A stretch of DNA of 64,000 nucleotides, taken from the NCBI RefSeq assembly GCF_002305855.1, contig NZ_CP022163.1, forward strand, positions 7,003,765 to 7,067,764. The letters run 5' to 3'. Shown piece by piece: positions 4,343 through 61,590 of this stretch. The position numbers and the translations under genes were made by a program. Origin of the DNA: Melittangium boletus DSM 14713 (GTDB taxonomy: Bacteria > Myxococcota > Myxococcia > Myxococcales > Myxococcaceae). How positions within the stretch are numbered: position 1 is the first letter of the stretch; every line of letters starts with the position of its first letter. The notes below the pieces were generated by a model, which saw nothing but the letters and a program-made list of their open reading frames with translations, ran no database searches and was not told the origin of the DNA.

Positions 4343-5662
4343 CTAGTCACACTCGTACTTGAAGTCGCGGCGCACCGGACCGTCGTCCAGGCCCGGCGTG
4401 CCCGAGTACTCCTCGTGCACGAGCCGTCCCTTGTCATCGCGCTCGTGGGTGCGCCGGGCATCCACGACGCCGTCCTGGTCGCTGTCCCACTCGTCGAGCC
4501 AGACGATCTTCGTGCCACACAGGTATGTGAGCCGGCGGGTGGTGGTCAGGTACGTGGTCACCAAAGGGTATTCGATGCCGGGGCCCGAGAGCTGGGTGTA
4601 GACCTTGCCAAGCCGCTCGAGCAGCAGCAGGCCCGAGGCGTCGTAATAGAGGGTCCGCACGAACTCGTGGCTGCGGTAATAGCCGCCGTATTTTTCCCAG
4701 CTTCGGAACACCCGGCGGGCCGCGTCGTGGGAGGTGACGGTGTGTCGGACATGCTCGAAGCCCTCCTCCTGTTCGTCCACGAGGTTGCCCCGGTCGTCGT
4801 ACAGGTTCGTGAAGCTCATGTGGTGGTCGTCGGTCCACGCGTTCTGTTTCACGTGGCCATTGGGCCAGTAGGTAAACGTCTCGCAGCGGGCGACTCTCAG
4901 GTCGCAGTCCGGCCGACTGTCGATCTCCACCAACTGACCCACCGCGTTGTAGTGGTAGACGATCGGGCCGTCCTGTCCGTTCGAGGTCTGGCGCTCGATG
5001 CGTTCGAGACGGCCCTTCGCGTCGCGGATGTACTGGTAGGAGCGGGGAAGGGTGGGCGCGTCGAACGTCTCGGTCCGCCGCGCGAGCCGGCCCGCGTCGT
5101 CATACGCCCACTCGATTTGGTCCCAGGAGCCCTCGGGGAACTCGAGGCGGCGGAGCGTTTCGTGGCCGTTCTTCCAGGTGTGGAACTCGGTCTCTTGCAG
5201 CGTGCCATCCGGCCCGTAGCGGCGCCGCTCCAGCAGGCGGCTGTCGGCGTCGTAGCGGGCCACCTCGCGGTCGCCGTTGGCGAAGACCGAGGTGCCCTCG
5301 CACGCCGTGGCGCGCACGGGCGCCACCTTCCCCTTCCAGGGCACACAGGCCACGGGCTTGAGGGTGGGGGAACCCTCGAGGCCCGCGCTCACGGGGGGAA
5401 CCTCGCCCGGCGACGGCGGGGGCTGCACCACGGGCACCGTGGGCTCCTGGGTGGGCGTCTCGGGCTGCGTCGAGGGCTCACCCGGAGGAGGCGCCTCACC
5501 CGTGGGGGGCGTGGACGCGGGCGGCTGGGCGGGCACGGGCGTGTCCGGGAGGGGCGCCGGGGCTTCGGGTGTGGGCCCTGGCGCGGGCTCCTCGCGCGTC
5601 GCACCACACCCCACGAGCATCGCGCACACGCTCCATCCCATCAGCCTCCAGTGCTTGCGCAT
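4343..5662 (-). CDS. YD-repeat (RHS-repeat-like) lipoprotein, paralog A
   Basis: Start ATG at ~5662 with GGAGGGGAG RBS. Lipoprotein signal 'MRKHWRLMGWSVCAMLVGCGA', then a Pro-rich linker. Multiple 'YDxxGRL'-type YD repeats ('ARYDADSRLLERRRYGPDGTL', 'YDDAGRLARR', 'YDDRGNLVDE'). The C-terminal ~60 aa are nearly identical to the divergently encoded paralog. Confidence 0.7.
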   Translation of the reverse strand: MRKHWRLMGWSVCAMLVGCGATREEPAPGPTPEAPAPLPDTPVPAQPPASTPPTGEAPPPGEPSTQPETPTQEPTVPVVQPPPSPGEVPPVSAGLEGSPTLKPVACVPWKGKVAPVRATACEGTSVFANGDREVARYDADSRLLERRRYGPDGTLQETEFHTWKNGHETLRRLEFPEGSWDQIEWAYDDAGRLARRTETFDAPTLPRSYQYIRDAKGRLERIERQTSNGQDGPIVYHYNAVGQLVEIDSRPDCDLRVARCETFTYWPNGHVKQNAWTDDHHMSFTNLYDDRGNLVDEQEEGFEHVRHTVTSHDAARRVFRSWEKYGGYYRSHEFVRTLYYDASGLLLLERLGKVYTQLSGPGIEYPLVTTYLTTTRRLTYLCGTKIVWLDEWDSDQDGVVDARRTHERDDKGRLVHEEYSGTPGLDDGPVRRDFKYECD

Positions 5663-5891
5663 TCCCATCTCCCCTCCGGTTGGTTGGCCGGCAAGGTGTG
5701 CACGTGGAGTGTGGGCGCCCATAGCCCCCGGTCGCTCGCTTGGGTACATGCCGAACGCTTGGCGACGGAAACGACATGAGGCGCGGACTCCACTCTACAC
5801 GCCTCCCATTCGCCCGATGCGTTGACTCCGGGTGAAGTCTTGTAGGGCGATGGGTCCATGAACACCTTCCCGCGACAACAGGGGAGGGAGC

Positions 5892-7157
5892 ATGGGACGG
5901 GGGCGGAGCGCATGGATGCTGGCCATGTGTCTGGTGGTGAGCGCATGTGGAAGCACGTCACCATCTCCCGCCGAGCCCACCGAGTCGGGGGAGCGGACGG
6001 GGCTGGGTCCGGGCGACGACCCGGCTGGCGGTGGCACGGTGTCCGGACTGGAGGGTGAGCCGTCCCTGCCGCCGCGTGCGTGCATCCCCTGGACGCGCCC
6101 GACGCCCCCGGTGCGAGCCACGGCGTGCGCGTCCTTCTCCGTGTTCGCGGATGGCTCCTCCGTGCGCGCCCGGTATGACGCCGACAGCCGTCCCCTCGAG
6201 GTGCGCGAGTTCTCGAGCGACGGCACGCTCCACACGGTGGAGACGCGTGTCTGGAGCGAGGGACTCGAGCGGCTGTACCGCCGGGAGGAGCTCGCGTTCG
6301 GCTTGTCCACCCAATCGGAGTGGACTTATGACGGCCGGCGGCTGCTGCGGCGCGTGGACTCGTTCTCGCACGACCCCCCGAAGACGTATGACTACGTCTA
6401 CGACGCCCAGGGCCGTATCACGCGCGTCGTGCGCCAGTGGTCCGGGGAGTCGGTCACGAGTCTCTACACCTACGACGTGCAAGGGCGCCTGGTGCGCATC
6501 GCCGACGAGCAGAGCGATTGGCTGTGCGGCTCGGGGGACAGCCGATGCGCGAGCCTGTCCTATTGGCCCAATGGTGTGCTCAAGCGCCACGAGTGGGAGA
6601 CCGGGAAGATGAACTTCGAGGAGGAGTTCGATGCGGCGGGCCGGCTCGTCGGGTCGCTCGCGCAAGACCCGGACCACCTGAGGCGCCGCCAGCTGGGCTA
6701 CGACGAGGCGGGGCGTTTGCGCCGGGAGTGGCGCTTGCACTCCTGGTACGTCTGGGACGCCACCTCCGTCACGCGCACCGTCTACGATCCCGCGGGGCGG
6801 CGCGAGCGGTTCGCGGAGGAACTGGCGGACTATGGCGAATGTGGGGCCCGTTTGCCGGATTGCGAGCCGGAGCGGAGCTCCGTGCACGTCACCCGCCGGA
6901 CCACCTTTTTCTGTGGCACGGAGATTGTCGCGCTCGACGAGTGGGACGGCGACGAGGACGGCGTGGTGGATGCCACGCGTACGCACGAGCGCGATGACGC
7001 GGGCCGGCTGGTGCACGAGGTGTACTCGGGCACGCCGGGACTGGATGACGGGCCCGTGCTGCGCGACTTCACCTATGAGTGCGCCCCGTCCGGCGTCGCT
7101 CAGACGCAGGGCGATGCCGGTGGTGAAGCCCGCGCCCGCGCTGCACAGGTGAGGTGA
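5892..7157 (+). CDS. YD-repeat (RHS-repeat-like) lipoprotein, paralog B
   Basis: ATG with GGGGAGGGAG RBS. Lipoprotein signal 'MLAMCLVVSACGS'. YD repeats ('ARYDADSRPLEVREFSSDGTL', 'YDAQGRITRV', 'YDVQGRLVRI', 'YDEAGRLRRE'). C-terminus 'WDGDEDGVVDATRTHERDDAGRLVHEVYSGTPGLDDGPVLRDFTYEC' matches paralog A. Confidence 0.7.
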   Translation: MGRGRSAWMLAMCLVVSACGSTSPSPAEPTESGERTGLGPGDDPAGGGTVSGLEGEPSLPPRACIPWTRPTPPVRATACASFSVFADGSSVRARYDADSRPLEVREFSSDGTLHTVETRVWSEGLERLYRREELAFGLSTQSEWTYDGRRLLRRVDSFSHDPPKTYDYVYDAQGRITRVVRQWSGESVTSLYTYDVQGRLVRIADEQSDWLCGSGDSRCASLSYWPNGVLKRHEWETGKMNFEEEFDAAGRLVGSLAQDPDHLRRRQLGYDEAGRLRREWRLHSWYVWDATSVTRTVYDPAGRRERFAEELADYGECGARLPDCEPERSSVHVTRRTTFFCGTEIVALDEWDGDEDGVVDATRTHERDDAGRLVHEVYSGTPGLDDGPVLRDFTYECAPSGVAQTQGDAGGEARARAAQVR

Positions 7158-7368
7158 TCCAAACCTCCCGTCTCCACACTTCACAACGCGCCGGGCGATT
7201 CTAAGGCACTCGGCGTTGCCGTGAGCGCGCACACATGCACGCCGTGGGATGGCGTACGGCCTCCACGCAACCTCCAGGGCACAGTTCTCCGCTAACGAGG
7301 AGGCGCGGATCGGCTTAGAGGACCAATCGGCGGGAACCAGGTTCACGAGGATGGAATGACCGAAGGCC

Positions 7369-8043
7369 TCATGCAGCTGGCCTGACCAGCCCGAGCTTCA
7401 AAAGGCTGTCCGAAGTGGCGACGACGGCGTCCTCGAAGGGCCGAGGCGACCAGCCCAGAAGCTTCTCTGCCTTTGCGCTGCTCGTCTCGCGCACCGACCC
7501 CAGGTGCGGCAGGACCACCTTCGCGGCCGGGTTGTGCAGTGCCGCAAGCCTCACGCGCCAATTGGGGAGCTCGCGCGTAGAGACGTGCGCGCCCAGCTTC
7601 CGCTTCAGTACCCGCGCCACGTCCGCGATGGAGTGGGTGCCCGGTGCCGCGGCGATGAAGCGCTCGCCCTTCGCCGCCGGGTGAGTCATCGCGCGTAGGT
7701 GCAGCTTCGCCACGTCGCGGACATCGACGTACGGCGAATAGACCTTCGGGCAGCCCGACATCGCGCCGCTCAGGAGCTGCTTGATGATTCCGATCGAGTG
7801 CGACGTGTCAGGCCCAAGCACCGGTCCCAGCACGCCAACGGGATTCACCGCGCTCAGTTCCAGTGCTCTGCCTTCACGCGCGAGGAAATCCCAGGCGGCG
7901 CGCTCCGACAGGGTCTTGGATCGCTGATAGAGCGGAACCCACGCCTCCTCACTGCTCCAGTCCGTCTCCAGATAAGGCCCACGTTTGGCGGTTGGAGTGG
8001 CGAGGCGGAGAAGCGTTACACCTGATTCTACAAAAGCGTGACG
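7369..8043 (-). pseudogene. NAD-dependent epimerase/dehydratase (SDR) family gene, N-terminally disrupted
   Basis: The C-terminal 159-aa ORF is clean. Extending upstream in frame gives '...PLYQRSKTLSERAAWDF...' (the catalytic YxxxK of SDRs). That frame hits a TAA at ~8045 with no Met and no Rossmann 'TGxxGxxG' segment. Rossmann-like remnants appear only in other frames at 8050-8400. Confidence 0.45.
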
Positions 8044-9250: not shown

Positions 9251-10135
9251 ATGAATGTCGACTCCATCCTCTTCTTGGTCCTGGGCGTGATCTGGGGAAC
9301 GAACTTCCTCTTCATGAAGGAGGCCGTTCAGGTCATCTCGCCGCTGCAGGTGGCCTGGCTGCGCGCCTCGTTCGGGGCAGTCCCCATCCTGCTCTTCGCG
9401 TTCTCGCGCAGGAGCCTGGCGAAGGCCGACCTCCGCAACGCGCACCACTTCGCGGCAATGTCGATTCTCTCCATCGTTGTCCCGTACGTGAGCTTCGTGA
9501 AGGGCACGCAGTATCTGCAGTCGGGAGCGGCCGGCGCGATCAGCGGCATCATCCCCTTGATGACAGCGGTGGCCGCCGCGCTCTTTCTTCCGAAGGATCG
9601 ATTGAGCGCGAGAAAAGGACTCGGATTGCTTCTCGGGCTCGTCGGCGTTGCCTGGGTCGCCGACGTGACCCGGCTCTTCGAGGCCTCATCGAGCAATGCC
9701 CTGCACGGCACCCTCTGCATGCTCTTGGGTTCGGCGGGATACGCGTCAGGGATGGTCTACGCCTACAAGTTCATCACGCCCTTGAAGCTCAGCCCCATCG
9801 CGCTTGCCGGGTATCAAACCGCCGGTGCGGCCTTGTTGCTCGCGTTCATCACCCCCATGAAGGGCGTCGAGGCGGTGGCGAGCGTGCCTGCATCCCTCGC
9901 CGCGCTCGCATTGGGGCTCGGACTGCTCGGCACGGGGATCGCGTTCATCCTCTACTACCGCATCATCGAGCGCCTGGGCGCGATCACCGCGTCGTCGGTC
10001 TTCTATATCCCGCCAGTGGTCGCCCTCGCCGTCGGCGCGCTTGTTGGCAAGGAGGGGCTTTCTCTCTCCCAGTGTCTGGGAACCGCGGTCATCTTGCTCG
10101 GCGTCTTTCTTGCCCGAAATGGAGCTCCGGCTTGA
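9251..10135 (+). CDS. EamA/DMT-family transporter
   Basis: 294 aa with ~10 hydrophobic helices and two EamA-like halves ('LFLVLGVIWGTNFLFMK', 'LLLGLVGVAWV'). Confidence 0.85.
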   Translation: MNVDSILFLVLGVIWGTNFLFMKEAVQVISPLQVAWLRASFGAVPILLFAFSRRSLAKADLRNAHHFAAMSILSIVVPYVSFVKGTQYLQSGAAGAISGIIPLMTAVAAALFLPKDRLSARKGLGLLLGLVGVAWVADVTRLFEASSSNALHGTLCMLLGSAGYASGMVYAYKFITPLKLSPIALAGYQTAGAALLLAFITPMKGVEAVASVPASLAALALGLGLLGTGIAFILYYRIIERLGAITASSVFYIPPVVALAVGALVGKEGLSLSQCLGTAVILLGVFLARNGAPA

Positions 10136-10608
10136 AACCAAAGAAGAAGAGTCCCGAGGCTTCGCAGCCAGATTTGAAGCCCATTCAGTGCGTGTGCACG
10201 AACTTGAAGATGGCTTCACGCGTTGTGGGCCGTGCGTATGACCTGGCGCTCGAGGAGAGCGGCGTGAACGTCATCCAGTACTCGATCTTGATCAACGTCT
10301 CGCGCTACCAGCCCATCTCCCAGATGCGGCTCGCCGAACATCTCGAGATGGAACGGACGACTTTGTACCGTGCGCTCGACATCCTCGAAAAGAAGGGCCT
10401 CGTGGCCTCTGAATCGAACGGCGAAGGCGTCGCGAAGGTGGTGCGGCTGACCGCTCGCGGGACAGACGTCACGTCCGCTGCTGCGCGAAAATGGAACTTG
10501 ATGCACGAGGGGTTCCTGTCGAAGTTCGGCCCCCGGAGGCTCAAGGAGCTCAATGCGCTCCTCGGCGAAGTTCGAGACCACTTCAAGCACGTCAACCCCT
10601 CCACCTGA
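10132..10608 (+). CDS. MarR-family transcriptional regulator
   Basis: Winged-helix MarR pattern 'VNVIQYSILINVSRYQPISQMRLAEHLEMERTTLYRALDILEKKGLV...VRLTARG'. TTG start overlaps the EamA stop. Alternative ATG at 10213. Confidence 0.75.
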   Translation: MKPKKKSPEASQPDLKPIQCVCTNLKMASRVVGRAYDLALEESGVNVIQYSILINVSRYQPISQMRLAEHLEMERTTLYRALDILEKKGLVASESNGEGVAKVVRLTARGTDVTSAAARKWNLMHEGFLSKFGPRRLKELNALLGEVRDHFKHVNPST

Positions 10609-10612
10609 AGGT

Positions 10613-10884
10613 GATGTCCGCGTGAGGCGCGAGGATGGTGCCCCAGAAGCCGTAGCTGGTGGCCTCGATCTTCGTGGTGTCGACGAAGTTGAAGAGGACG
10701 CTCTTCTGATTGATGCCACCGCTGAATGACTGGCCGAGGTGGCGAACCGGGCGTACGCGCCCCGGATGTTGATGACGACGCGGGAGTTGACCGGCGCGTT
10801 GATGGAGAAGTCGTTCTTCCGGCCGAAGACGCTGGTGTCCACGTCCTCGGCCACCTGGGAGACGCTCTTGCCTCCCTCGCACAC
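10613..10884 (-). pseudogene. Choice-of-anchor-A domain fragment (frameshifted)
   Basis: Two adjacent minus frames give '...NDFSINAPVNSRVVINIRGAYARF' and 'SGGINQKSVLFNFVDTTKIEATSYGFWGTILAPHADITF'. Together these match the choice-of-anchor-A pattern (VVINV-G...LFNFP...GSILAP-A). No start and no signal peptide. Confidence 0.4.
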
Positions 10885-10929
10885 TGAAGCTCCGCCTCTT
10901 CCTTCTCTCCATGGACACTACCTCTCGTG

Positions 10930-11085
10930 TAGCCGACTTATGCGGTATGTCCACTAAAACGCCTCTCCCGCACTTCATGTGCTCCATGAGCCGTCCAAGA
11001 GCGGGACTCCTGCTGCTCCGTCGCACGCGACTCGCCAGCCGAGCAGCGAACACACAAAGTGCGGGAGAGCCACTAAAGCGGGGCA
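10930..11085. repeat. MITE-like element copy A (terminal inverted repeats CCGYTTTAGTGGCTCTCCCGCACTTT)
   Basis: Left arm 10933-10970 ('ctaaaacgcctctcccgcacttcatgtgctcc'). Right arm 11043-11070 ('acaaagtgcgggagagccactaaagcgg') is its reverse complement. Second copy at 57787-57967. Confidence 0.5.
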
Positions 11086-11108
11086 GGCTCACCCCGAGGT
11101 GCTACGTG

Positions 11109-12137
11109 ATGCGTTGTTCACTGGTGCTGCTCTGCTTGGCCCTGATGGGGTGTGGCGGCGCTGCTCCAAGCGTCCGTCATACGCCGGATGAGCAGAGGCG
11201 CTGTGTATATGTCCCGTCCCGTGACGAGGCGGCCGGAGCCTGGAATGAGACGGTGCCCTCCGCTCACGCGGGTGTGAACGTGGTGCTTGTCGCGGCGACG
11301 GCGGGGGCTTCGCCCGTGGCTCCCCCTGCCCCAAGTCCGGCTCCTGCCCTGGAATGGCTGTCGGGTGAGGGGTTGGGGAACGGCATTCCCCGGGGCGTGC
11401 TCCGGTTGGTGCCTGAAGGAGGCGCGGGCGCGGAGGTAGGGGCTGGCGGAGCCGCAGGGGAGACGGTGGTGGTGGGGGGAGCGTTCGTCGCAGCCGTTGG
11501 CAGTGGGCTGCTGGTCTGCCTGACGGCTCGTGCGGCCCTGGATGGGGAGAAGACCCCCATCGAGATTGCGGACGAGTATTACGGCACACACTTCGGAGAC
11601 GTGATGGGGTGGGTTCAAGGTCAATACCCGGCCCAGGTTCCTCCTCCTGGCGCAGCGCCCAGGTCGAAACCCGACGAGAGCACCGGCAAGAGGCTGGGGC
11701 GCATCTATGTCACCTACACAAAGCTCAATAAGATGACCCACCGCTACTACGCGGGGCGGACCAGCATGGTCGTCGATCTTGCTGTGTCCCTCGAATTTCA
11801 GGCCGCACTGGCGGTTTTCCTCCGAGACAGAAACCACCACCTGGACGAGAATGCTGAACCGGGTGGCGCCATGTTCGGCTTGGCGCAGACTGATCGATTT
11901 GATGTCGGCACCGGGGTTGACTATAGCCGTCGATACGACGACGTCGCTTACTGGCGGATTCGCGGGAGAGAGCAGCAGTTGATTGATTCCCTTGGAGGAG
12001 CCCACGCTGACACCGGAGCGCCTTATCGCACCGAGAACGCCGTACGCGGCGTGGCGAAAGAAAATCCACAAGGCAGAAGGTTCCACTCCGCCGCGACGGA
12101 GTTGTGGGGCCAACTTCACCCTTACACGGGATACTAG
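11109..12137 (+). CDS. Lipoprotein, candidate OME-delivered (SitA-like) polymorphic toxin; function of C-terminal domain unknown
   Basis: Start ATG 11109 (GTG 11106) preceded by GAGGTG, lying inside the right arm of the MITE-like element. Lipobox 'LLCLALMGCGG'. Ala/Gly/Pro-rich linker, then a globular C-terminal domain. Followed 3 nt later by a small low-GC ORF. Confidence 0.55.
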   Translation: MRCSLVLLCLALMGCGGAAPSVRHTPDEQRRCVYVPSRDEAAGAWNETVPSAHAGVNVVLVAATAGASPVAPPAPSPAPALEWLSGEGLGNGIPRGVLRLVPEGGAGAEVGAGGAAGETVVVGGAFVAAVGSGLLVCLTARAALDGEKTPIEIADEYYGTHFGDVMGWVQGQYPAQVPPPGAAPRSKPDESTGKRLGRIYVTYTKLNKMTHRYYAGRTSMVVDLAVSLEFQAALAVFLRDRNHHLDENAEPGGAMFGLAQTDRFDVGTGVDYSRRYDDVAYWRIRGREQQLIDSLGGAHADTGAPYRTENAVRGVAKENPQGRRFHSAATELWGQLHPYTGY

Positions 12138-12139
12138 GG

Positions 12140-12595
12140 ATGCCGCGAATCTACAAACCGGGCTCGTTCTTGAGAATCCCCCTTGCCGACGGCTCCTTCG
12201 GTTACGGCAGGGTGCTCAAACTGCCGCATGATGCCTATTACGATTACAGGACCGACACTCCAGATTCCGATCTGGAGCGGATTGCCTCCAAGCCTATCCT
12301 TTTCAAGATCATGGTTCGCCATATGGAGGAGAGGGCATGGGAGTTCATTGGGTGGAAAAAGCTGGAGGAGCAGTTTTCTCAACCGGTCGTCCAGTTCATG
12401 CAGGACATTGGGAACCTCCGCGACTGCACGATCTTCGACACCGTCGGCAATTCGAGGCGCGCGGAGCCCCAGGAGTGTGTGGGACTTGAGCGCTCGGCTG
12501 TCTGGGAAGAGGTGGGAGTCGAGCAACGCCTGCTCGACTCCTTCATGGGGCGGCCCAACGATGACGTGGAGCGCGTGAAGGTGCGCCTGAAATAG
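12140..12595 (+). CDS. Small cytoplasmic protein, candidate immunity protein (Imm-like)
   Basis: 152 aa, no signal peptide, N-terminus 'MPRIYKPGSFLRIPLADGSFGYGRVL'. GC ~55% versus ~69% background. Tightly coupled to the upstream lipoprotein. Confidence 0.5.
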   Translation: MPRIYKPGSFLRIPLADGSFGYGRVLKLPHDAYYDYRTDTPDSDLERIASKPILFKIMVRHMEERAWEFIGWKKLEEQFSQPVVQFMQDIGNLRDCTIFDTVGNSRRAEPQECVGLERSAVWEEVGVEQRLLDSFMGRPNDDVERVKVRLK

Positions 12596-55194: not shown

Positions 55195-57303
55195 ATGGAG
55201 AAACACTGGATGAGAAAGGCATTGCTCGCCGCTTGCTGCCTCATGGCTTCCGCCTGCAAGACGGCCACGCCCGCGCCCTCGCAGACCGAGCCTCAGGCGC
55301 CTCCCGCGCCGCCCCCGCCCGCCCAGCCGTTGCCGATGCCCGCCGGTCTGGATGCCTCGGCGATGAACGAGCAGGCGAACCCCTGCGACGACTTCTACGA
55401 GTACGCGTGTGGCAACTGGATGAAGACGACGGAGATCCCCGCGGACCGCCCCCGCTGGTCGCGCGGCTTCGACTCCATCACGGCGCGCAACGAGGAGATC
55501 CTCCGGAACATCCTGGAGGCGGCGTCCACGGGCAAGGCCCCCGAGGGCACGCCCTACGCCCAGAAGCTGGGTGACTTCTACGGCTCCTGCATGGACGAGG
55601 CGAAGCTCGAGGCCTCGCTGCCCGCGCTCAAGGCGGACCTGGCGAAGCTGACGGTGGCCAAGGACGCGAAGGCACTGGCCCAGCAGGTGGGCACCCTGCA
55701 TGCCCGCGCCGTCTTCCCCTTCTTCCGCTTCAGCTCCAACAACGACCTCAAGGACGCCAGCCAGATGATCGGCGAGGTGGACCAGGGCGGCTTGAGCCTG
55801 CCGGACAAGGACTACTACCTGCGCGACGACGAGAAGTCGAAGGCGCTGCGGGGCGCGTTCGTGGAGCACGCGAAGAACGTCTTCGTGCTGCTCGGCGAGA
55901 CGCCCGACGTGGCGGCCAAGAGCGCCGCGACGGTGATGGAGGTGGAGACGGCGCTGGCCAAGGTGTCCCAGTCGCGCGTGGAGCGCCGCGAGCCCAAGAA
56001 CCTCTACCACCGCCTGGATCGCAAGGGCCTCAAGGCGGAGACTCCGGCCTTCCCGTGGGATGTGTACTTCACGGCCGTGGGCGCCAAGGACGTGCAGGCG
56101 CTCAACGTCACTCATCCTCCCTTCTTCAAGGAGCTGGAGCGTCTGGTGCGGACCACGCCTCCCGCGGAGTGGAAGACCTACCTGACGTGGCACTACGTCT
56201 CGAGCAGCATTCCCGCCCTGCCCAAGGCCTTCCAGGACGAGCGCTTCCGCTTCTCGCAGAACCTGACGGGCGCGAAGGAGGACACGGTCCGTTGGAAGAA
56301 GTGCGTGCGCTACACCAACGCGGGTCTGGGCGAGGCGCTCGCGCGGCCCTTCATCGCGCAGACGTTCGGCGCGGACGGCAAGGCGACCACGCAGCAGATG
56401 GTGGTGGAGCTGGAGAAGGCCTTCGAGCGCGATCTGGACACGCTCACCTGGATGGACGCGCCCACCAAGGAGCAGGCGCTGGTGAAGGCGCGCAAGATCG
56501 TCAACAAGATTGGCTACCCGGACCAGTGGCGCAACTACGACGCGGTGAAGGTGGATCGCGGCTCGTTCCTCGCCTCGTGGACGGGCGTCAACGCGTTCGA
56601 GCAGGCGCGGCAGTTGGCGAAGATCGGCAAGCCGGTGGACAAGAACGAGTGGTTGATGTCTCCGCCCACGGTGAACGCCTACTACAACCCGCCCTTCAAC
56701 GAGATCGTCTTCCCGGCGGGCATCCTGCAGCCGCCCTTCTTCGATCGCGAGGCGACGGCGCCGGTGAACTTCGGCGCCATGGGCATGGTGGTGGGACATG
56801 AAGTCACCCACGGCTTCGACGACGAGGGCCGGCAGTATGACGCGGAGGGCAACCTGCGCGACTGGTGGACGCCCGCCTCGGACAGCGCCTTCCGCGAGCG
56901 CGTCGCGTGCGTGAAGACGCAATACGACGGCTACACGGCGGTGGATGACCTCAAGGTCAACGGGGCCCTGACGCTCGGGGAGAACGTGGCGGACCTGGGG
57001 GGCCTGAAGCTGGCGCACTCGGCCATGGAGGAGTGGCTGCGCAAGAATCCGGAGGAGGCGAAGCGCGCGAGCGGTTCGCGCTTCACGCCGAGCCAGCAGC
57101 TCTTCCTGGGCTACGCGCAGTCCTGGTGCTCGAAGACCCGGGACGCGTTCGCCCGGCAGTTGGTGCTGGTGGATCCGCACTCGCCGCCGTACTGGCGGGT
57201 GAACGGCCCGGTGGGCAACCTGCCGGAGTTCCAGCGGGCCTTCTCGTGCAGGGCGGACGCGAAGATGGTGCGTCCTCCGGCCGAACGCTGCGAGGTCTGG
57301 TAG
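55195..57303 (+). CDS. M13-family zinc metallopeptidase (PepO/endothelin-converting-enzyme-like), lipoprotein
   Basis: Lipobox 'LLAACCLMASACK'. 'NAYYNPPFNEIVFPAGILQPPFF', 'VVGHEVTHGFDDEG' (HExxH) and 'ENVADLGG' (ExxxD). Confidence 0.85.
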   Translation: MEKHWMRKALLAACCLMASACKTATPAPSQTEPQAPPAPPPPAQPLPMPAGLDASAMNEQANPCDDFYEYACGNWMKTTEIPADRPRWSRGFDSITARNEEILRNILEAASTGKAPEGTPYAQKLGDFYGSCMDEAKLEASLPALKADLAKLTVAKDAKALAQQVGTLHARAVFPFFRFSSNNDLKDASQMIGEVDQGGLSLPDKDYYLRDDEKSKALRGAFVEHAKNVFVLLGETPDVAAKSAATVMEVETALAKVSQSRVERREPKNLYHRLDRKGLKAETPAFPWDVYFTAVGAKDVQALNVTHPPFFKELERLVRTTPPAEWKTYLTWHYVSSSIPALPKAFQDERFRFSQNLTGAKEDTVRWKKCVRYTNAGLGEALARPFIAQTFGADGKATTQQMVVELEKAFERDLDTLTWMDAPTKEQALVKARKIVNKIGYPDQWRNYDAVKVDRGSFLASWTGVNAFEQARQLAKIGKPVDKNEWLMSPPTVNAYYNPPFNEIVFPAGILQPPFFDREATAPVNFGAMGMVVGHEVTHGFDDEGRQYDAEGNLRDWWTPASDSAFRERVACVKTQYDGYTAVDDLKVNGALTLGENVADLGGLKLAHSAMEEWLRKNPEEAKRASGSRFTPSQQLFLGYAQSWCSKTRDAFARQLVLVDPHSPPYWRVNGPVGNLPEFQRAFSCRADAKMVRPPAERCEVW

Positions 57304-57382: not shown

Positions 57383-57739
57383 ATGAACGCTCCAATCTAC
57401 ACGCTCGTCCGAGGCGCCGACTGGCGGGCAGCCAAGACGGTGGGTGCCTACTGCGGCTCGGCCGACGACACGCGCGACGGCTTCCTGCACTTTTCCACGG
57501 CCGAGCAGGTGCGCGACAGCGCGCGCAAGCACCGCGCGGGGGAGCGAGACCTGTGGCTGGTGGCCGTCGATCCGGAGGCGTTGGGCGCGGCGCTGCGGTG
57601 GGAGCCAGCCTCGGGTGGCCGTCGCCCGGGGTTGTTCCCGCACTTGTACGGCCCGCTGCCGGTGTCGGCCGTGGTGTCGGCGGTTCCACTGCCGCTGGGC
57701 GGCGACGGGCAGCACACCTTCCCCGACGGGGTGCCGTAG
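57383..57739 (+). CDS. DUF952-domain protein (intact copy)
   Basis: 118 aa, 'DGFLHFSTAEQV...LWLVAVDPEAL'. Its 3' 336 bp are repeated at 59287-59623. Confidence 0.7.
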   Translation: MNAPIYTLVRGADWRAAKTVGAYCGSADDTRDGFLHFSTAEQVRDSARKHRAGERDLWLVAVDPEALGAALRWEPASGGRRPGLFPHLYGPLPVSAVVSAVPLPLGGDGQHTFPDGVP

Positions 57740-57786
57740 GGAGCGTTCAATCCCACTCCGCCGACGAGGCAGTCGTGGGCCTGATC

Positions 57787-57967
57787 CGTTTTAGTGGCTC
57801 TCCCGCACTTTATGTGCTCCGCGAACTGGAATGCTTTCTGCTCCAACAAGCGTTGCTCGCCACATGAGCGGTGAACATACAAAGTGAGGAGAGGCACGTA
57901 ACCGGCTCAAACCCGAACGCCACGCAGATGGCGAACCGCCTGCGACGGAGGAGAGCCACAAAATCGG
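57787..57967. repeat. MITE-like element copy B (same inverted-repeat family as 10930-11085)
   Basis: Left arm 'ccgttttagtggctctcccgcactttatgtgctcc' (57787-57821). Degenerate internal arm 57884-57905. Right arm 'ggaggagagccacaaaatcgg' (57947-57967) is the reverse complement of the left arm. Confidence 0.5.
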
Positions 57968-57990
57968 TTCAGAATCCATTGAAGGATATT

Positions 57991-58464
57991 TCATTCACCC
58001 AGCCAATAGAGACCGCGCCGGGTTCGCAGCACCTGCTCCAGGAACTCCGAGAGGGAACTGGCGACCTGCTTGCAGTAGGCCGGATCCGGCCACGCCTCGT
58101 GGTCGCCGTCGAAGAGGGGGTAGAGACCATTCTCCTGGCGACGCACATCTACCAGCACGTAGTTACCGTCCTGTACGTCGCAGAAGGCGAACACCGAGGC
58201 AGGACCCCACGTATCGTTATCCTCACCGTAGATGGCTACCCGTGCTCGGACGATCTCGGACAGGGGAAGCATCTGATACGGCGAGTTCGGCAGCCTCTTG
58301 ATCAACTCCGCCCCGTTGCAGTGCAGATAGAAGGCACGAAGGTCCGAGTCCAGCTTCCAGCCCACCCTCTGCTCGAACGCATCGATCTCCTCCGGCGTAG
58401 CAGGTGGATAGGGGAAGTGATCGCGGGAGACTTCCTCCAGCAGGCGGCTCATGGGCGTGGGCAT
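57991..58464 (-). CDS. SMI1/KNR4 (SUKH-1) family immunity protein
   Basis: 'TPEEIDAFEQRVGWKLDSDLRAFYLHCNGAELI...YQMLPLSEI...VFAFCDVQDGNYVLVDV' is a SUKH-1 pattern. No signal peptide. GC ~60%. ATG 58464 lies 3 nt after the toxin stop. Confidence 0.7.
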   Translation of the reverse strand: MPTPMSRLLEEVSRDHFPYPPATPEEIDAFEQRVGWKLDSDLRAFYLHCNGAELIKRLPNSPYQMLPLSEIVRARVAIYGEDNDTWGPASVFAFCDVQDGNYVLVDVRRQENGLYPLFDGDHEAWPDPAYCKQVASSLSEFLEQVLRTRRGLYWLGE

Positions 58465-58466
58465 CG

Positions 58467-59132
58467 TCAATTGTCTGTGTAGGGCAGATCGGGGCCCACT
58501 GTATTCCAGGGTGGCTGGCCGCCGTAGCACGCGGGATACGCCCTGTTGTACAGGTCGTGGACGCTGGGCTTCGCGGGGAAAATATTGTTGGGGTCCACTG
58601 GATTGCCTCCGTGCTGGAGGTCCCGGATGTGATGGCCGGGCCACGACTTGGTGCCATCGCCAGGCCACTCTCCAAATTTCTTGCTCCAGTCCTCCCGGAA
58701 GGACTCTCGAAATCTGTCCCACCTCTTGCGCTCCACTTCCTTCTTGTCTGTCGGCAGCTTGGGGTAGTTGCAGCAGCAGTGCCAGATGCCGTAGCGGCTC
58801 CCGGAATCAACGTCCACGGGTAAGAGGATGAGGCGGCCCTCCCAATCGAACTTGAGATCGGCCAGCCAAACGCAACCCATGAGCGGGGAACCTTCACTGG
58901 CGCACTGCATCTGGCACTGGTTCATGAATTGACGGCGGCACTGCCAGGGACCGTAGAAGAGGGTTGTCTTCATCCGTCCACCCGGAACCATCAGCCACGG
59001 CAGTTCCTTCTTCACAGCGGGCTTGGCCCCGGGTGATGGCGTGGGTTTAGTCCCGAGGGAACCGCTCGACTCGTTGATGGAGCCGCACGCGGCGAGGAGC
59101 ATCAGCAGTACCGCCGTCCAGTCCAGCTTCAT
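58467..59132 (-). CDS. Lipoprotein with C-terminal Tox-GHH (HNH/EndoVII-superfamily) nuclease domain; SitA-like OME toxin candidate
   Basis: ATG at 59132. Lipobox 'LLMLLAACGS'. Cys-rich middle region ('CRRQFMNQCQMQC', 'WHCCCNY'). C-terminal 'SWPGHHIRDLQHGGNPVDPNNI' matches the GHH signature. GC ~58%. Confidence 0.65.
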   Translation of the reverse strand: MKLDWTAVLLMLLAACGSINESSGSLGTKPTPSPGAKPAVKKELPWLMVPGGRMKTTLFYGPWQCRRQFMNQCQMQCASEGSPLMGCVWLADLKFDWEGRLILLPVDVDSGSRYGIWHCCCNYPKLPTDKKEVERKRWDRFRESFREDWSKKFGEWPGDGTKSWPGHHIRDLQHGGNPVDPNNIFPAKPSVHDLYNRAYPACYGGQPPWNTVGPDLPYTDN

Positions 59133-59286
59133 GAGAATCCCCCGTGATGATGGCCACCCCTTGCTGGGTAGCCAATTCGAGGGGATACCCGATGCGGCTG
59201 ACAACTCTCGGCGCTCGATACTCTCGGCGGCGTCCTCCGGGATCATCAAAAGCGCCAGTGTTTTGGCATAAGAGGGTGTGCCCGTC

Positions 59287-59623
59287 GCTCGTCCGAGGCG
59301 ACGACTGGCGGGCAGCCAAGACGGTGGGTGCCTACCGCGGCTCGGCCGACGACACGCGCGACGGCTTCCTGCACTTTTCCACGGCCGAGCAGGTGCGCGA
59401 CAGCGCGCGCAAGCACCGCGCGGGGGAGCGAGACCTGTGGCTGGTGGCCGTCGATCCGGAGGCGTTGGGCGCGGCGCTGCGATGGGAGCCGGCATCGGGC
59501 GGGCGTCGTCCGGGGCTGTTCCCGCACCTGTACGGCCCGCTGCCGGTGTCGGCCGTGTTGTCGGCGGTTCCGCTGCCGCTGGGCGGCGACGGGCAGCACA
59601 CCTTCCCCGACGGGGTGCCGTAG
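59287..59623 (+). pseudogene. 3' partial duplicate of the DUF952 gene (direct repeat of 57404-57739, ~96% identical)
   Basis: Nucleotide alignment shows ~14 mismatches in 337 bp, mostly synonymous. No N-terminal 5 codons and no start codon. Confidence 0.7.
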
Positions 59624-59632
59624 GACGGGCGC

Positions 59633-60667
59633 TCAGAAGAAGCTGAGCTGGGTGCCCGACTTCATGGGCCGACGGAAGGGACTCTCCTTGTCGCCGCTGT
59701 CCAGGGACATGGTGGTTTTCAGCCCCAGGCGGCGGGCGGTGGTCGCGAAGAGCTGGTGGAGGGTGTCCGCGTACAGGCCCTCGCCGCGCATGCGCACCTT
59801 GAAGCGTGAGTCGTTGAGTTCTCCGCCCCGCGTCTCGCGGATGCGGTGGAGGACGCGCTCGGCGCGCAGGGGCAGCTTGTCGCGCAGACGCTGCTCGAAG
59901 ACGGCCTGCACGGGGCCGGGCAGCCGCAGCAGGGTGGAGAAGGCCCGGGTGGCCCCCGCCTCGCGCGCCGCGGTGAGCACGCGCACCATGTCCTCGTCAT
60001 TGAGGCCGGGGATGATGGGAGCCACCGCCACGCCCACGTCGATGCCCGCGGCGGCCAGCCGCTCGATGGTGAGCAGGCGCCGGCGGGGCGAGGCCACGTA
60101 GGGCTCCATGGCCCGGGCCACGTGCTCGTCGTGGAAGGGGAGGGTGATGCATACGGAGAGCCGTGCGTGCTCGGCGAGCGTCTGGAGCACGTCGAGGTCG
60201 CGCTCGATGAGGAGCCCCTTGGTGATGATGCCCACGGGGTTGCGGTACTCGGCGCAGACCTCCAGGCAGGCGCGGGTGAGCCGCAGCGAGGCCTCCAGGG
60301 GCTGGTAGCAGTCGGTGATGCCGCTGAAGGCGACGGACTCGCCCTTCCAGCTCCTGCGCTCGAAGGCCTCGCGCAGCAGCTCCGCGGCGCGCGGCTTGAC
60401 GACGAGTTTGGTCTCGAAGTCCGTACCCGCGCCGAAGCCGAGGTACTCGTGATAGGGCCGGGCGTAGCAGTACGCGCAGGCGTGCAGGCAACCGCGGTAC
60501 GGGTTGACGCTCCAGGAGAAGCCCACGTCCGGACTGTCGTTGCGCCCGAGCACCTCGCGGCTGTGATCCTCCAGGACCTCCAGCTTCGCGGGGGGAATCT
60601 CCTCCAGGTACTCCACTGCGGTGGTGTCCCAGGGGTTGGGCGGGTTGGAGACGGGCCGGGGTTTCAC
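59633..60667 (-). CDS. Radical SAM protein (SplB/PA0069-like family)
   Basis: 'NPYRGCLHACAYCYARPYHEY' is a CxxxCxxC radical-SAM cluster motif. GTG start. Confidence 0.8.
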   Translation of the reverse strand: MKPRPVSNPPNPWDTTAVEYLEEIPPAKLEVLEDHSREVLGRNDSPDVGFSWSVNPYRGCLHACAYCYARPYHEYLGFGAGTDFETKLVVKPRAAELLREAFERRSWKGESVAFSGITDCYQPLEASLRLTRACLEVCAEYRNPVGIITKGLLIERDLDVLQTLAEHARLSVCITLPFHDEHVARAMEPYVASPRRRLLTIERLAAAGIDVGVAVAPIIPGLNDEDMVRVLTAAREAGATRAFSTLLRLPGPVQAVFEQRLRDKLPLRAERVLHRIRETRGGELNDSRFKVRMRGEGLYADTLHQLFATTARRLGLKTTMSLDSGDKESPFRRPMKSGTQLSFF

Positions 60668-61446: not shown

Positions 61447-61503
61447 TCGAGTCGGAAAAAGCGAAGGGCCTGGAACTCCTGGAGGATGTCTCCAGGAGTT
61501 CCA
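61447..61503 (-). terminator. Rho-independent terminator downstream of tRNA-Gly
   Basis: Perfect 19-bp stem 'GGGCCTGGAACTCCTGGAG'/'CTCCAGGAGTTCCAGGCCC' with a 6-nt loop. Followed on the minus strand by 'CTTCGCTTTTTCC'. Confidence 0.55.
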
Positions 61504-61517
61504 GGCCCTTCATTCAG

Positions 61518-61590
61518 AGCGGCGGACCGGGTTCGAACCGGCGACCCCGAGCTTGGGAAGCTCGTGCTCTACCAGCTGAGCTACCACCGC
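61518..61590 (-). tRNA. tRNA-Gly (anticodon CCC)
   Basis: Reverse complement 'GCGGTGGTAGCTCAGCTGGTAGAGCACGAGCTTCCCAAGCTCGGGGTCGCCGGTTCGAACCCGGTCCGCCGCT' folds as a cloverleaf. 7-bp acceptor stem, D-arm GCTC/GAGC, anticodon loop TTCCCAA, T-arm GCCGG/CCGGT with TTCGAAC loop. CCA not encoded. Confidence 0.85.

Follow-up and report, generated by a model that had tools for sequence, protein, structure and literature searches.

A candidate lipoprotein toxin–SUKH immunity operon, very probably acquired, inserted between direct repeats of a DUF952 gene in Melittangium boletus

A two-gene operon was located in a 64,000-nt stretch of the genome of Melittangium boletus DSM 14713 (NZ_CP022163.1), hereafter the window, to which all coordinates refer unless another locus is named. 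The operon consists of a 221-amino acid lipoprotein with an HNH-type motif, a candidate toxin (58467..59132, minus strand; ATB32382.1), and a SMI1/KNR4 (SUKH-1) immunity gene (57991..58464, minus strand; ATB32381.1), and it lies on a 1530-bp insert that is absent in related genomes. The insert is enclosed by two direct copies of the 3' part of a DUF952 gene. The operon is very probably a horizontally acquired cassette. For the locus as a whole, the explanation we favour on balance is that of an acquired lipoprotein toxin-SUKH operon, which likely entered by insertion-duplication without a recombinase; its function would be interbacterial or kin antagonism.

The insert and its empty site

The native left flank of the locus is an M13 peptidase gene (55195..57303, plus strand; Pfam Peptidase_M13_N and Peptidase_M13), followed by the full-length DUF952 gene, a small gene of housekeeping type (57383..57739, plus strand; ATB32380.1; Pfam PF06108, 1.9e-28, 98.6 bits); the native right flank is a PA0069-family radical SAM gene (59633..60667, minus strand; NCBIfam NF033668, 5.6e-117). 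In four related records, one of them from a second Melittangium genome (L078) and the others metagenome contigs (L080/L081 and L082), the same three genes are present and the radical SAM gene abuts DUF952 with no DNA inserted between the two. Such an empty site had been predicted in an earlier note on this stretch, made from the sequence alone. The M13 peptidase gene is collinear with L078, L080 and L082, and the flanks of L082 are 93.7% identical to the window. Alignment with blastn places window positions 53000-57755 on L082 1631-6373 and positions 59286-62500 on L082 6020-9259. Because the homology to the empty site stops at 57755 and resumes at 59286, the insert spans 57756-59285. From the same alignment, the duplicated target corresponds to L082 6020-6373, which comprises DUF952 from codon 7 to the stop plus 16 nt of intergenic DNA.

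The insert has a guanine-plus-cytosine (GC) content of 0.605, versus 0.689 for the window and 0.68–0.69 for the flanks, and the GC content at third codon positions is 0.78 for the toxin and SUKH genes versus 0.94 for the M13 peptidase and radical SAM genes. The low-GC segment described earlier was thus real, but its limits (57740-59286) were narrowed, as the 16 nt after the first DUF952 stop (57740-57755) match the native intergenic sequence of L080/L082 (GGAGCGTTCAATCCCA). The intergenic sequence following the second, displaced copy is 9 nt long, 22 nt shorter than its L082 equivalent. No open reading frame (ORF) for an integrase, excisionase or transposase is present within the 1530 bp. The accessions at the locus are consecutive: ATB32380 (DUF952), ATB32381 (SUKH), ATB32382 (lipoprotein) and ATB32383 (truncated DUF952).

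The direct repeat and its imported patch

Copy A of the direct repeat (57402..57741) runs from DUF952 codon 7 to 2 nt beyond the stop and matches copy B (59286..59625; ATB32383.1, WP_245918948.1) without gaps over 339–340 bp, at an identity of 96.4–96.5%; the coordinates given earlier (57404-57739 and 59287-59623) were within 2 nt of the measured ones. Copy A is contained in the complete DUF952 ORF. Copy B lacks the first 6 codons, yet its ORF is intact, and it is annotated as a glutathione S-transferase. The copies differ at 12 positions in the ORF part and at one position right after the stop. Nine of the 12 are synonymous and three non-synonymous, so that the former count of about 14 differences, almost all synonymous, was roughly right.

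The differences are not spread evenly. A patch of 91 bp (57598..57688, with its counterpart at 59482-59572 in copy B) holds 10 of them, compared with 2 in the remaining 247 positions (Fisher p=5e-5). Nine of the ten patch differences are synonymous; both non-patch differences are non-synonymous, and one of these is clearly derived in copy B. Within the patch, copy B differs from L080/L082 at 2–3 of 91 positions and copy A at 9–12 of 91; elsewhere copy B is about 9% away from these sequences. Outside the patch both copies are equally far from L082 (17/196 and 5/51 each). Since copy B is close to L080/L082 in the patch only, and the changes there are mostly synonymous, the patch was imported from a functional, diverged allele of the L080/L082 type. 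An origin of the distal copy from a diverged homolog, as suggested earlier, therefore applies to these 91 bp and not to the rest of the repeat. In addition, the 16 nt that follow copy A are L080/L082-like, and the intergenic sequence that follows copy B is 22 nt shorter.

The candidate lipoprotein toxin

The lipoprotein starts with a signal peptide and the lipobox LLAAC at Cys16 (MKLDWTAVLLMLLAAC followed by GSINES), and continues with a linker of ~20 residues, a Cys-rich subdomain (about residues 36–125) and an HNH-type subdomain (about 126–221). The GHH-containing HNH-type motif reported in the earlier note was confirmed as WPGHHIRDLQHGGN. By a published sorting rule, lipoproteins without Lys at position +2 and without Ala at +7 are read as localised to the outer membrane (PMC5562445); the protein has Gly at +2 and Ser at +7 and thus conforms to the rule. 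In an alignment of 43 family members, which are ~218 residues long and conserved over the full length, eight Cys, H167, H168, N183 and H192 are invariant. Cys16 of the lipobox is nearly invariant, as are W164, P165 and G166, so that W164-P165-G166-H167-H168 forms a G-H-H signature ahead of the catalytic strand.

An AlphaFold (AF2) model built from the family alignment had a predicted local distance difference test score (pLDDT) of 85.7 and a predicted template modelling score (pTM) of 0.78. It contains a subdomain of beta-sheet and helix (about 36–125), a long helix, two strands (166–168 and 184–186) and a helix (189–203). The two strands and the last helix form a beta-beta-alpha arrangement that presents the invariant His, Asn and His, with pLDDT values above 90. 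On this basis the protein is probably an HNH-type nuclease. Its mature part of ~190 residues would consist of the Cys-rich subdomain followed by a beta-beta-alpha-metal nuclease of the HNH/EndoVII type with a GHH...N...H active-site motif; nuclease activity and toxicity are predicted from the motif and the model.

To assess the affinity to toxins, the family profile was run against 1.84 billion representative proteins. The module at about positions 27–217 recurs as the C-terminus of the RHS-repeat proteins P0136, P0144 and P0168. The nuclease part alone was found at the end of another RHS protein (P0193), of two CBM96 proteins (P0200 and P0208) and of a cargo protein with the extracellular contractile injection system (eCIS) core domain (P0216). 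Forms with a signal peptide only also exist. The homologous stretch of P0144 scores just above the Pfam HNH cutoff (21.6 versus 21.4 bits). The lipoprotein may accordingly be read, from sequence and model, as an uncatalogued polymorphic-toxin module of the HNH/EndoVII superfamily joined directly to a lipoprotein signal. It shares the predicted beta-beta-alpha core, the HH...N...H residues and the adjoining immunity gene with Rhs C-terminal HNH/EndoVII toxins (for example Rhs2-CT, PDB 9t38) and with the AHH-, WHH- and GHH-type domains, and the same ~190-residue module stands behind the Rhs core in P0136, P0144 and P0168. Unlike these toxins it has no Pfam Tox-* or HNH match and carries an extra Cys-rich subdomain at the N-terminal side; and where Rhs toxins form the tip of a large protein, it is a stand-alone lipoprotein.

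What weighs against the nuclease assignment is that the Pfam and NCBIfam scan of the toxin, both as full protein and as its C-terminal 111 residues, gave no match even at E<=10. Tox-GHH (PF15636), the family named in the earlier note, has no match among the 43 family members, and a single member matches HNH, at E=0.027. Tox-GHH, like any other Pfam or NCBIfam family, was rejected for the toxin on these searches; 'GHH-type' is a fair description of the motif, and assignment to the Tox-GHH family is unsupported. A Foldseek search against the PDB gave no match, and sequence searches of the PDB with the single toxin and with the family profile returned only a non-significant NDUFB7-like match in the Cys-rich part. 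This weak profile match (E=0.046) aligns residues ~27–105 with NDUFB7, a twin-Cx9C CHCH protein, and may hint at a disulfide-stabilised helical hairpin in that part of the toxin.

The immunity gene and the cassette family

The 157-residue SUKH protein matches SMI1_KNR4 (PF09346) over the whole model, with 80 bits at a cutoff of 25.4 and an E-value of 3.1e-22, which confirms the identity proposed in the earlier note. Its gene begins 2 nt past the toxin stop, in agreement with the tight coupling noted before. Translation of the two genes would be coupled, and the cytoplasmic SUKH product should neutralise the toxin in the producing cell.

A scan of species-representative genomes yielded 130 copies of the toxin; the counts at the level of loci refer to the 77 loci fetched among these. 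In 76 of the 77, all those not cut by a contig end, the gene downstream of the toxin encodes a SUKH protein. The lipoprotein form was found in Myxococcaceae/Archangiaceae only, with up to 4–5 copies per genome, and the genera that carry the cassette are Archangium, Cystobacter, Melittangium, Vitiosangium, Hyalangium, Myxococcus, Corallococcus and Pyxidicoccus. Many loci also contain orphan SUKH genes, SUKH fragments, 3' fragments of the toxin gene or tandem cassettes. The family is thus widespread, is so far without a hidden Markov model (HMM), and its members are called no more than hypothetical lipoproteins in the public records. The cassettes have a GC content of about 0.60–0.63 at all loci, and the lower GC is therefore a property of the family.

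Independent loci are homologous over a stretch that begins at the SUKH stop (57988-57991) and goes no further than 59272-59276. It includes a conserved leader or promoter region of ~140 nt (59133..59276, minus strand), whose far end lies at 59272-59276 for 7 loci and closer to the toxin gene for others. From these limits and the ragged leader end, the moving unit is the operon with up to about 140 nt of leader and no fixed termini; transposon-like termini were rejected on the same ground. Scans for promoters and terminators gave nothing above the shuffled expectation. M. boletus has two further paralogues, the closest being ATB31719/31720; with a toxin only 91% identical, this pair was not the recent source of the insert. 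A DUF952 gene lies near the cassette at just one other locus, L015, and was considered as a related case; a gene intervenes there and the adjacency was taken as coincidence.

Two loci have arrangements of their own. In L055, two 99.96% identical IS66 copies (transposase plus IS66 Orf2-like; 5425-7893 and 9449-11918) lie in direct orientation on either side of the cassette, much as in a composite transposon; this is the sole case with IS66 flanks. In L020, two divergent HNH-SUKH cassettes point in opposite directions, and each has a copy of a DUF2569 gene upstream (5118-5723 and 7221-7853; 83% nucleotide identity between the copies).

Recurrence of the topology at other loci

Other occupied sites were examined briefly, by self-comparison of all loci and identification of the genes involved. 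In L051, the cassette stands between a full zwf gene and a 416-bp repeat of that gene's 3' end; this truncated copy has a 9-nt deletion and a frameshift. In L009 (4433-7718), a single defence-like, AT-rich gene for a dynamin-like GTPase-TIR protein (956 residues; GC about 0.5) separates mutY from a second copy of its 3' end (206 bp, 97% identical), and the HNH cassette comes next. Repeats of 269 bp, duplicated from adjoining host DNA, bracket a likewise defence-like CHAT-SIR2 gene of 670 residues in L053 (4737-7646), intergenic repeats of 109 bp bracket the cassette in L056, and fragments of a TsiV gene lie upstream of the toxin in L049. No integrase was found at any of these five loci. The recurrence suggests insertion-duplication without a recombinase as a general way in which small conflict-gene cassettes enter these genomes. 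Empty and occupied sites, together with the recurrent topology, bear on how small accessory cassettes enter very large genomes without a dedicated recombinase and come to lie between excision-prone repeats.

Origin of the insertion and the duplication

The order of full gene, insert, 5'-truncated copy and native downstream DNA is the expected product of a single crossover. Integration of the Campbell type, as proposed in the earlier note, is the best reading of the locus; in our estimate it falls just short of an even call. The donor would have been a circular DNA molecule in which the cassette adjoined about 354 bp from the DUF952 3' region, and its integration would leave an intact DUF952 gene, the insert, which would have landed 16 nt past the DUF952 stop, and a displaced, 5'-truncated DUF952 copy. 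A crossover between 57689 and 57741 would yield the duplication, both L080/L082-like stretches (the patch of copy B and the 16 nt after copy A) and the shorter native intergenic sequence. The 340-bp direct repeats would in turn allow homologous recombination to excise the cassette, and toxin-immunity addiction would oppose its loss. The arrangement resembles insertion-duplication, as in insertion-duplication mutagenesis and additive transformation, in the full copy, insert and truncated copy, in the lack of a recombinase and in a repeat length set by the homologous fragment. That process has been described chiefly as a product of laboratory work; at the DUF952 locus, a toxin cassette would have used it in nature.

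Several observations weigh against the single crossover. The 5' 196 bp of copy B are M. boletus-like, at the same distance from L082 as copy A (17/196), where donor DNA would be expected; the model consequently needs a mosaic donor or a later A-to-B gene conversion. The cassette was not found by tblastn in phage and plasmid collections, and no circular form was seen. The locus is explained about equally well by an in-situ duplicative insertion to which an imported patch and a 22-nt deletion were added, so that the topology agrees with Campbell-type integration without discriminating it from such an insertion followed by gene conversion. In that course of events, foreign linear DNA would have been captured at a staggered break or by a template switch, with the ~354-bp duplication made at once, and copy B would later have undergone the 91-bp conversion and the 22-nt deletion. 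The near identity of the copies outside the patch (2/247) and their equal distance from L082 (17/196 and 5/51) would follow if both came from the resident gene. The two non-patch differences, both non-synonymous and one of them derived in copy B, would be the decay of a redundant copy. Duplication lengths that vary by locus (109–416 bp), ragged cassette ends and the lack of a recombinase also agree with it. It does, however, call for three separate events, whereas a single crossover with a partly L080/L082-like donor covers both the patch and the intergenic difference; and a template switch from an in-genome paralogue is improbable, such a paralogue being only 91% identical at the protein level. 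Taken together we consider the in-situ origin rather unlikely.

The locus also recalls site-specific integration into the end of a gene. At icd of Escherichia coli, the elements e14 and phage 21 bring a substitute 3' gene end, and the native end is displaced. The DUF952 locus is alike in that the 3' end of a protein gene is duplicated, the gene stays whole and most differences between the copies are synonymous, and it could be the remnant of an integrative element at the DUF952 3' end that later lost its integrase and remaining parts, or a cassette mobilised in trans. Its topology equals that of an element-borne 3' end with the native end displaced, the patch differences are mostly synonymous, and relatives have a tRNA-Gly gene and island-like genes in the vicinity. 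However, e14 and phage 21 encode an integrase and have a defined core site, and the 1.5-kb insert has neither, with no ORF for an integrase, excisionase or transposase. Where this topology is found elsewhere, the duplicated host DNA is unrelated (zwf, mutY, intergenic) and integrases are missing as well, and the cassette has no conserved terminal sequence. Such a remnant is very unlikely.

Relation to SitA/SitI and route of delivery

The six families of SitA toxins in myxobacteria each have their own N-terminal escort domain of ~375 residues, together with a lipobox, a C-terminal nuclease and a downstream immunity gene, and transfer depends on TraAB (PMC8546572, PMC10433427). SitI1 is a SUKH protein (PMC5562445), and M. 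boletus is among the species with traAB orthologs (PMC6372800). The resemblance to SitA/SitI (families SitA1/2, 3, 4, 5, 6 and 7) pointed out in the earlier note extends to an outer-membrane-type lipoprotein, a C-terminal nuclease-type toxin and an immunity gene directly downstream in the operon. It also includes immunity by a SUKH protein, the many paralogous loci per genome, the restriction to myxobacteria that bear traAB, and toxin modules shared with other delivery systems. The cassette differs in having no sitB gene upstream. The protein differs in lacking the ~375-residue escort domain, with about 20 linker residues between the lipobox and the toxin module; there is no room for such a domain, since the protein has 221 residues and the module at ~27–217 is found on Rhs C-termini as well. 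The pair is thus SitA-like in its genetic logic and is not a shown member of SitA, as the escort domain is absent.

The comparison with escort-domain HMMs covered SitA5, one of the six SitA families. The window protein, its two paralogues and one Corallococcus homolog did not match NCBIfam SitA5_escort; as a positive control, a 448-residue AHH toxin at locus L026 did (8e-19). Named M. xanthus or M. fulvus proteins were absent from the best 120 matches of a search seeded with a Myxococcus member of the family. Identity with SitA7 is argued against by two features alone, the size of the protein and its absence among the named M. fulvus and M. xanthus matches. A modular mini escort domain was considered and ruled out, because the relatives that share the N-terminal part only are frameshifted or truncated copies of the toxin gene.

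The AHH protein at L026 is part of a separate toxin pair. At 4711-7996 of that locus, a tandemly duplicated pair (91% over 1279 bp), consisting of the 448-residue AHH-nuclease protein with the SitA5_escort match and an Imm11 gene, lies directly upstream of the HNH cassette. As the two adjoin, toxin cassettes cluster at this locus.

By analogy with the SitA toxins, the lipid anchor would pass the toxin to neighbouring cells through TraAB-mediated outer-membrane exchange, and entry of the escort-less protein into the cell would rest on the toxin module itself. We hold delivery by outer-membrane exchange to be possible, with the doubts somewhat outweighing the support. Two points weigh against it: SitA toxins reach the cytoplasm by means of the escort domain that is missing here, and the occurrence of the module on Rhs proteins means that a lipid anchor alone is no proof of outer-membrane exchange. 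A toxin that does not make use of TraAB might instead be released on outer-membrane vesicles, be exposed at the surface against non-kin or prey, or act as a periplasmic nuclease held in check by its inhibitor. The lack of an escort domain and of a SitA5_escort match would be expected in that case. The module is moreover agnostic of the delivery system, with Rhs, eCIS-core and signal-peptide-only forms, and the eight invariant Cys suggest an extracytoplasmic protein stabilised by disulfides. On the other hand, the lipobox form is confined to taxa that carry traAB, paralogous copies and orphan immunity genes occur as in sitAI loci, and the cytoplasmic location of the SUKH partner implies entry of the toxin into the cytoplasm of siblings. 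Delivery without TraAB appears a little more doubtful still than outer-membrane exchange.

A far-reaching version of the exchange reading combines two claims. The ~220-residue lipoproteins would be a seventh, escort-less class of outer-membrane-exchange toxins, in which the Cys-rich subdomain replaces the escort domain, and they would spread, together with the dynamin-TIR and CHAT-SIR2 cassettes, by a recombinase-free cycle of excision and re-entry. Homologous excision between the duplicated host fragments would give a circle, which would enter naive genomes by a single crossover and be retained by toxin-immunity addiction. We regard this combination as improbable. Being without an escort domain, the toxin offers a simple test of whether a lipid anchor and a toxin module suffice for killing mediated by exchange.

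Inverted-repeat element and other features of the window

The spacer of 235 bp downstream of the SUKH gene contains the inverted-repeat element of about 180 bp described earlier, which measures 192 bp overall (57781..57972). Its 23-nt arms (57781-57803 and 57950-57972) are 87% complementary, and its RNA fold has a z-score of −2.9; no match was found in Rfam. A repeat of ~35–45 nt with the core GTGGCTCTCCCGCAC occurs as inverted pairs at 57781-57972 and at 10963-11092 of the window (core at 11059), at 9249-9292 of L004 and at 9135-9175 of L024. All four places adjoin a toxin or immunity gene, and in L004 and L024 the element lies downstream of SUKH. The element was considered as a part of the cassette and rejected as such, being present after just three cassettes and once elsewhere in the window. 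It resembles repetitive extragenic palindromic (REP) elements or miniature inverted-repeat transposable elements (MITEs).

To the right of the radical SAM gene, a perfect 22-nt palindrome with a 5-nt loop (61463-61511) adjoins a tRNA-Gly(CCC) gene at 61517-61590. In L080, the region past the radical SAM gene differs, with HTH_17 and HTH_3 genes and a partial match to the tRNA-Gly region, and this pattern suggests that an island occupies the tRNA site of the strain. DUF952 proteins from Melittangium and Archangium share 70–76% identity with those of Acetobacteraceae (Roseomonas, Falsiroseomonas, Azospirillum). To judge from the sequences, a closeness so unusual across such distant phyla points to an old horizontal transfer or to very strong conservation.

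A second lipoprotein toxin-like pair of low GC content (0.60–0.65) is present at 11109-12595 on the plus strand of the window. Its first ORF starts with MRCSLVLLCLALMGCGG and has no match in Pfam or NCBIfam; the downstream ORF of 163 residues, which overlaps the first by a few codons, matches Imm26 (PF15428, 4.5e-13).

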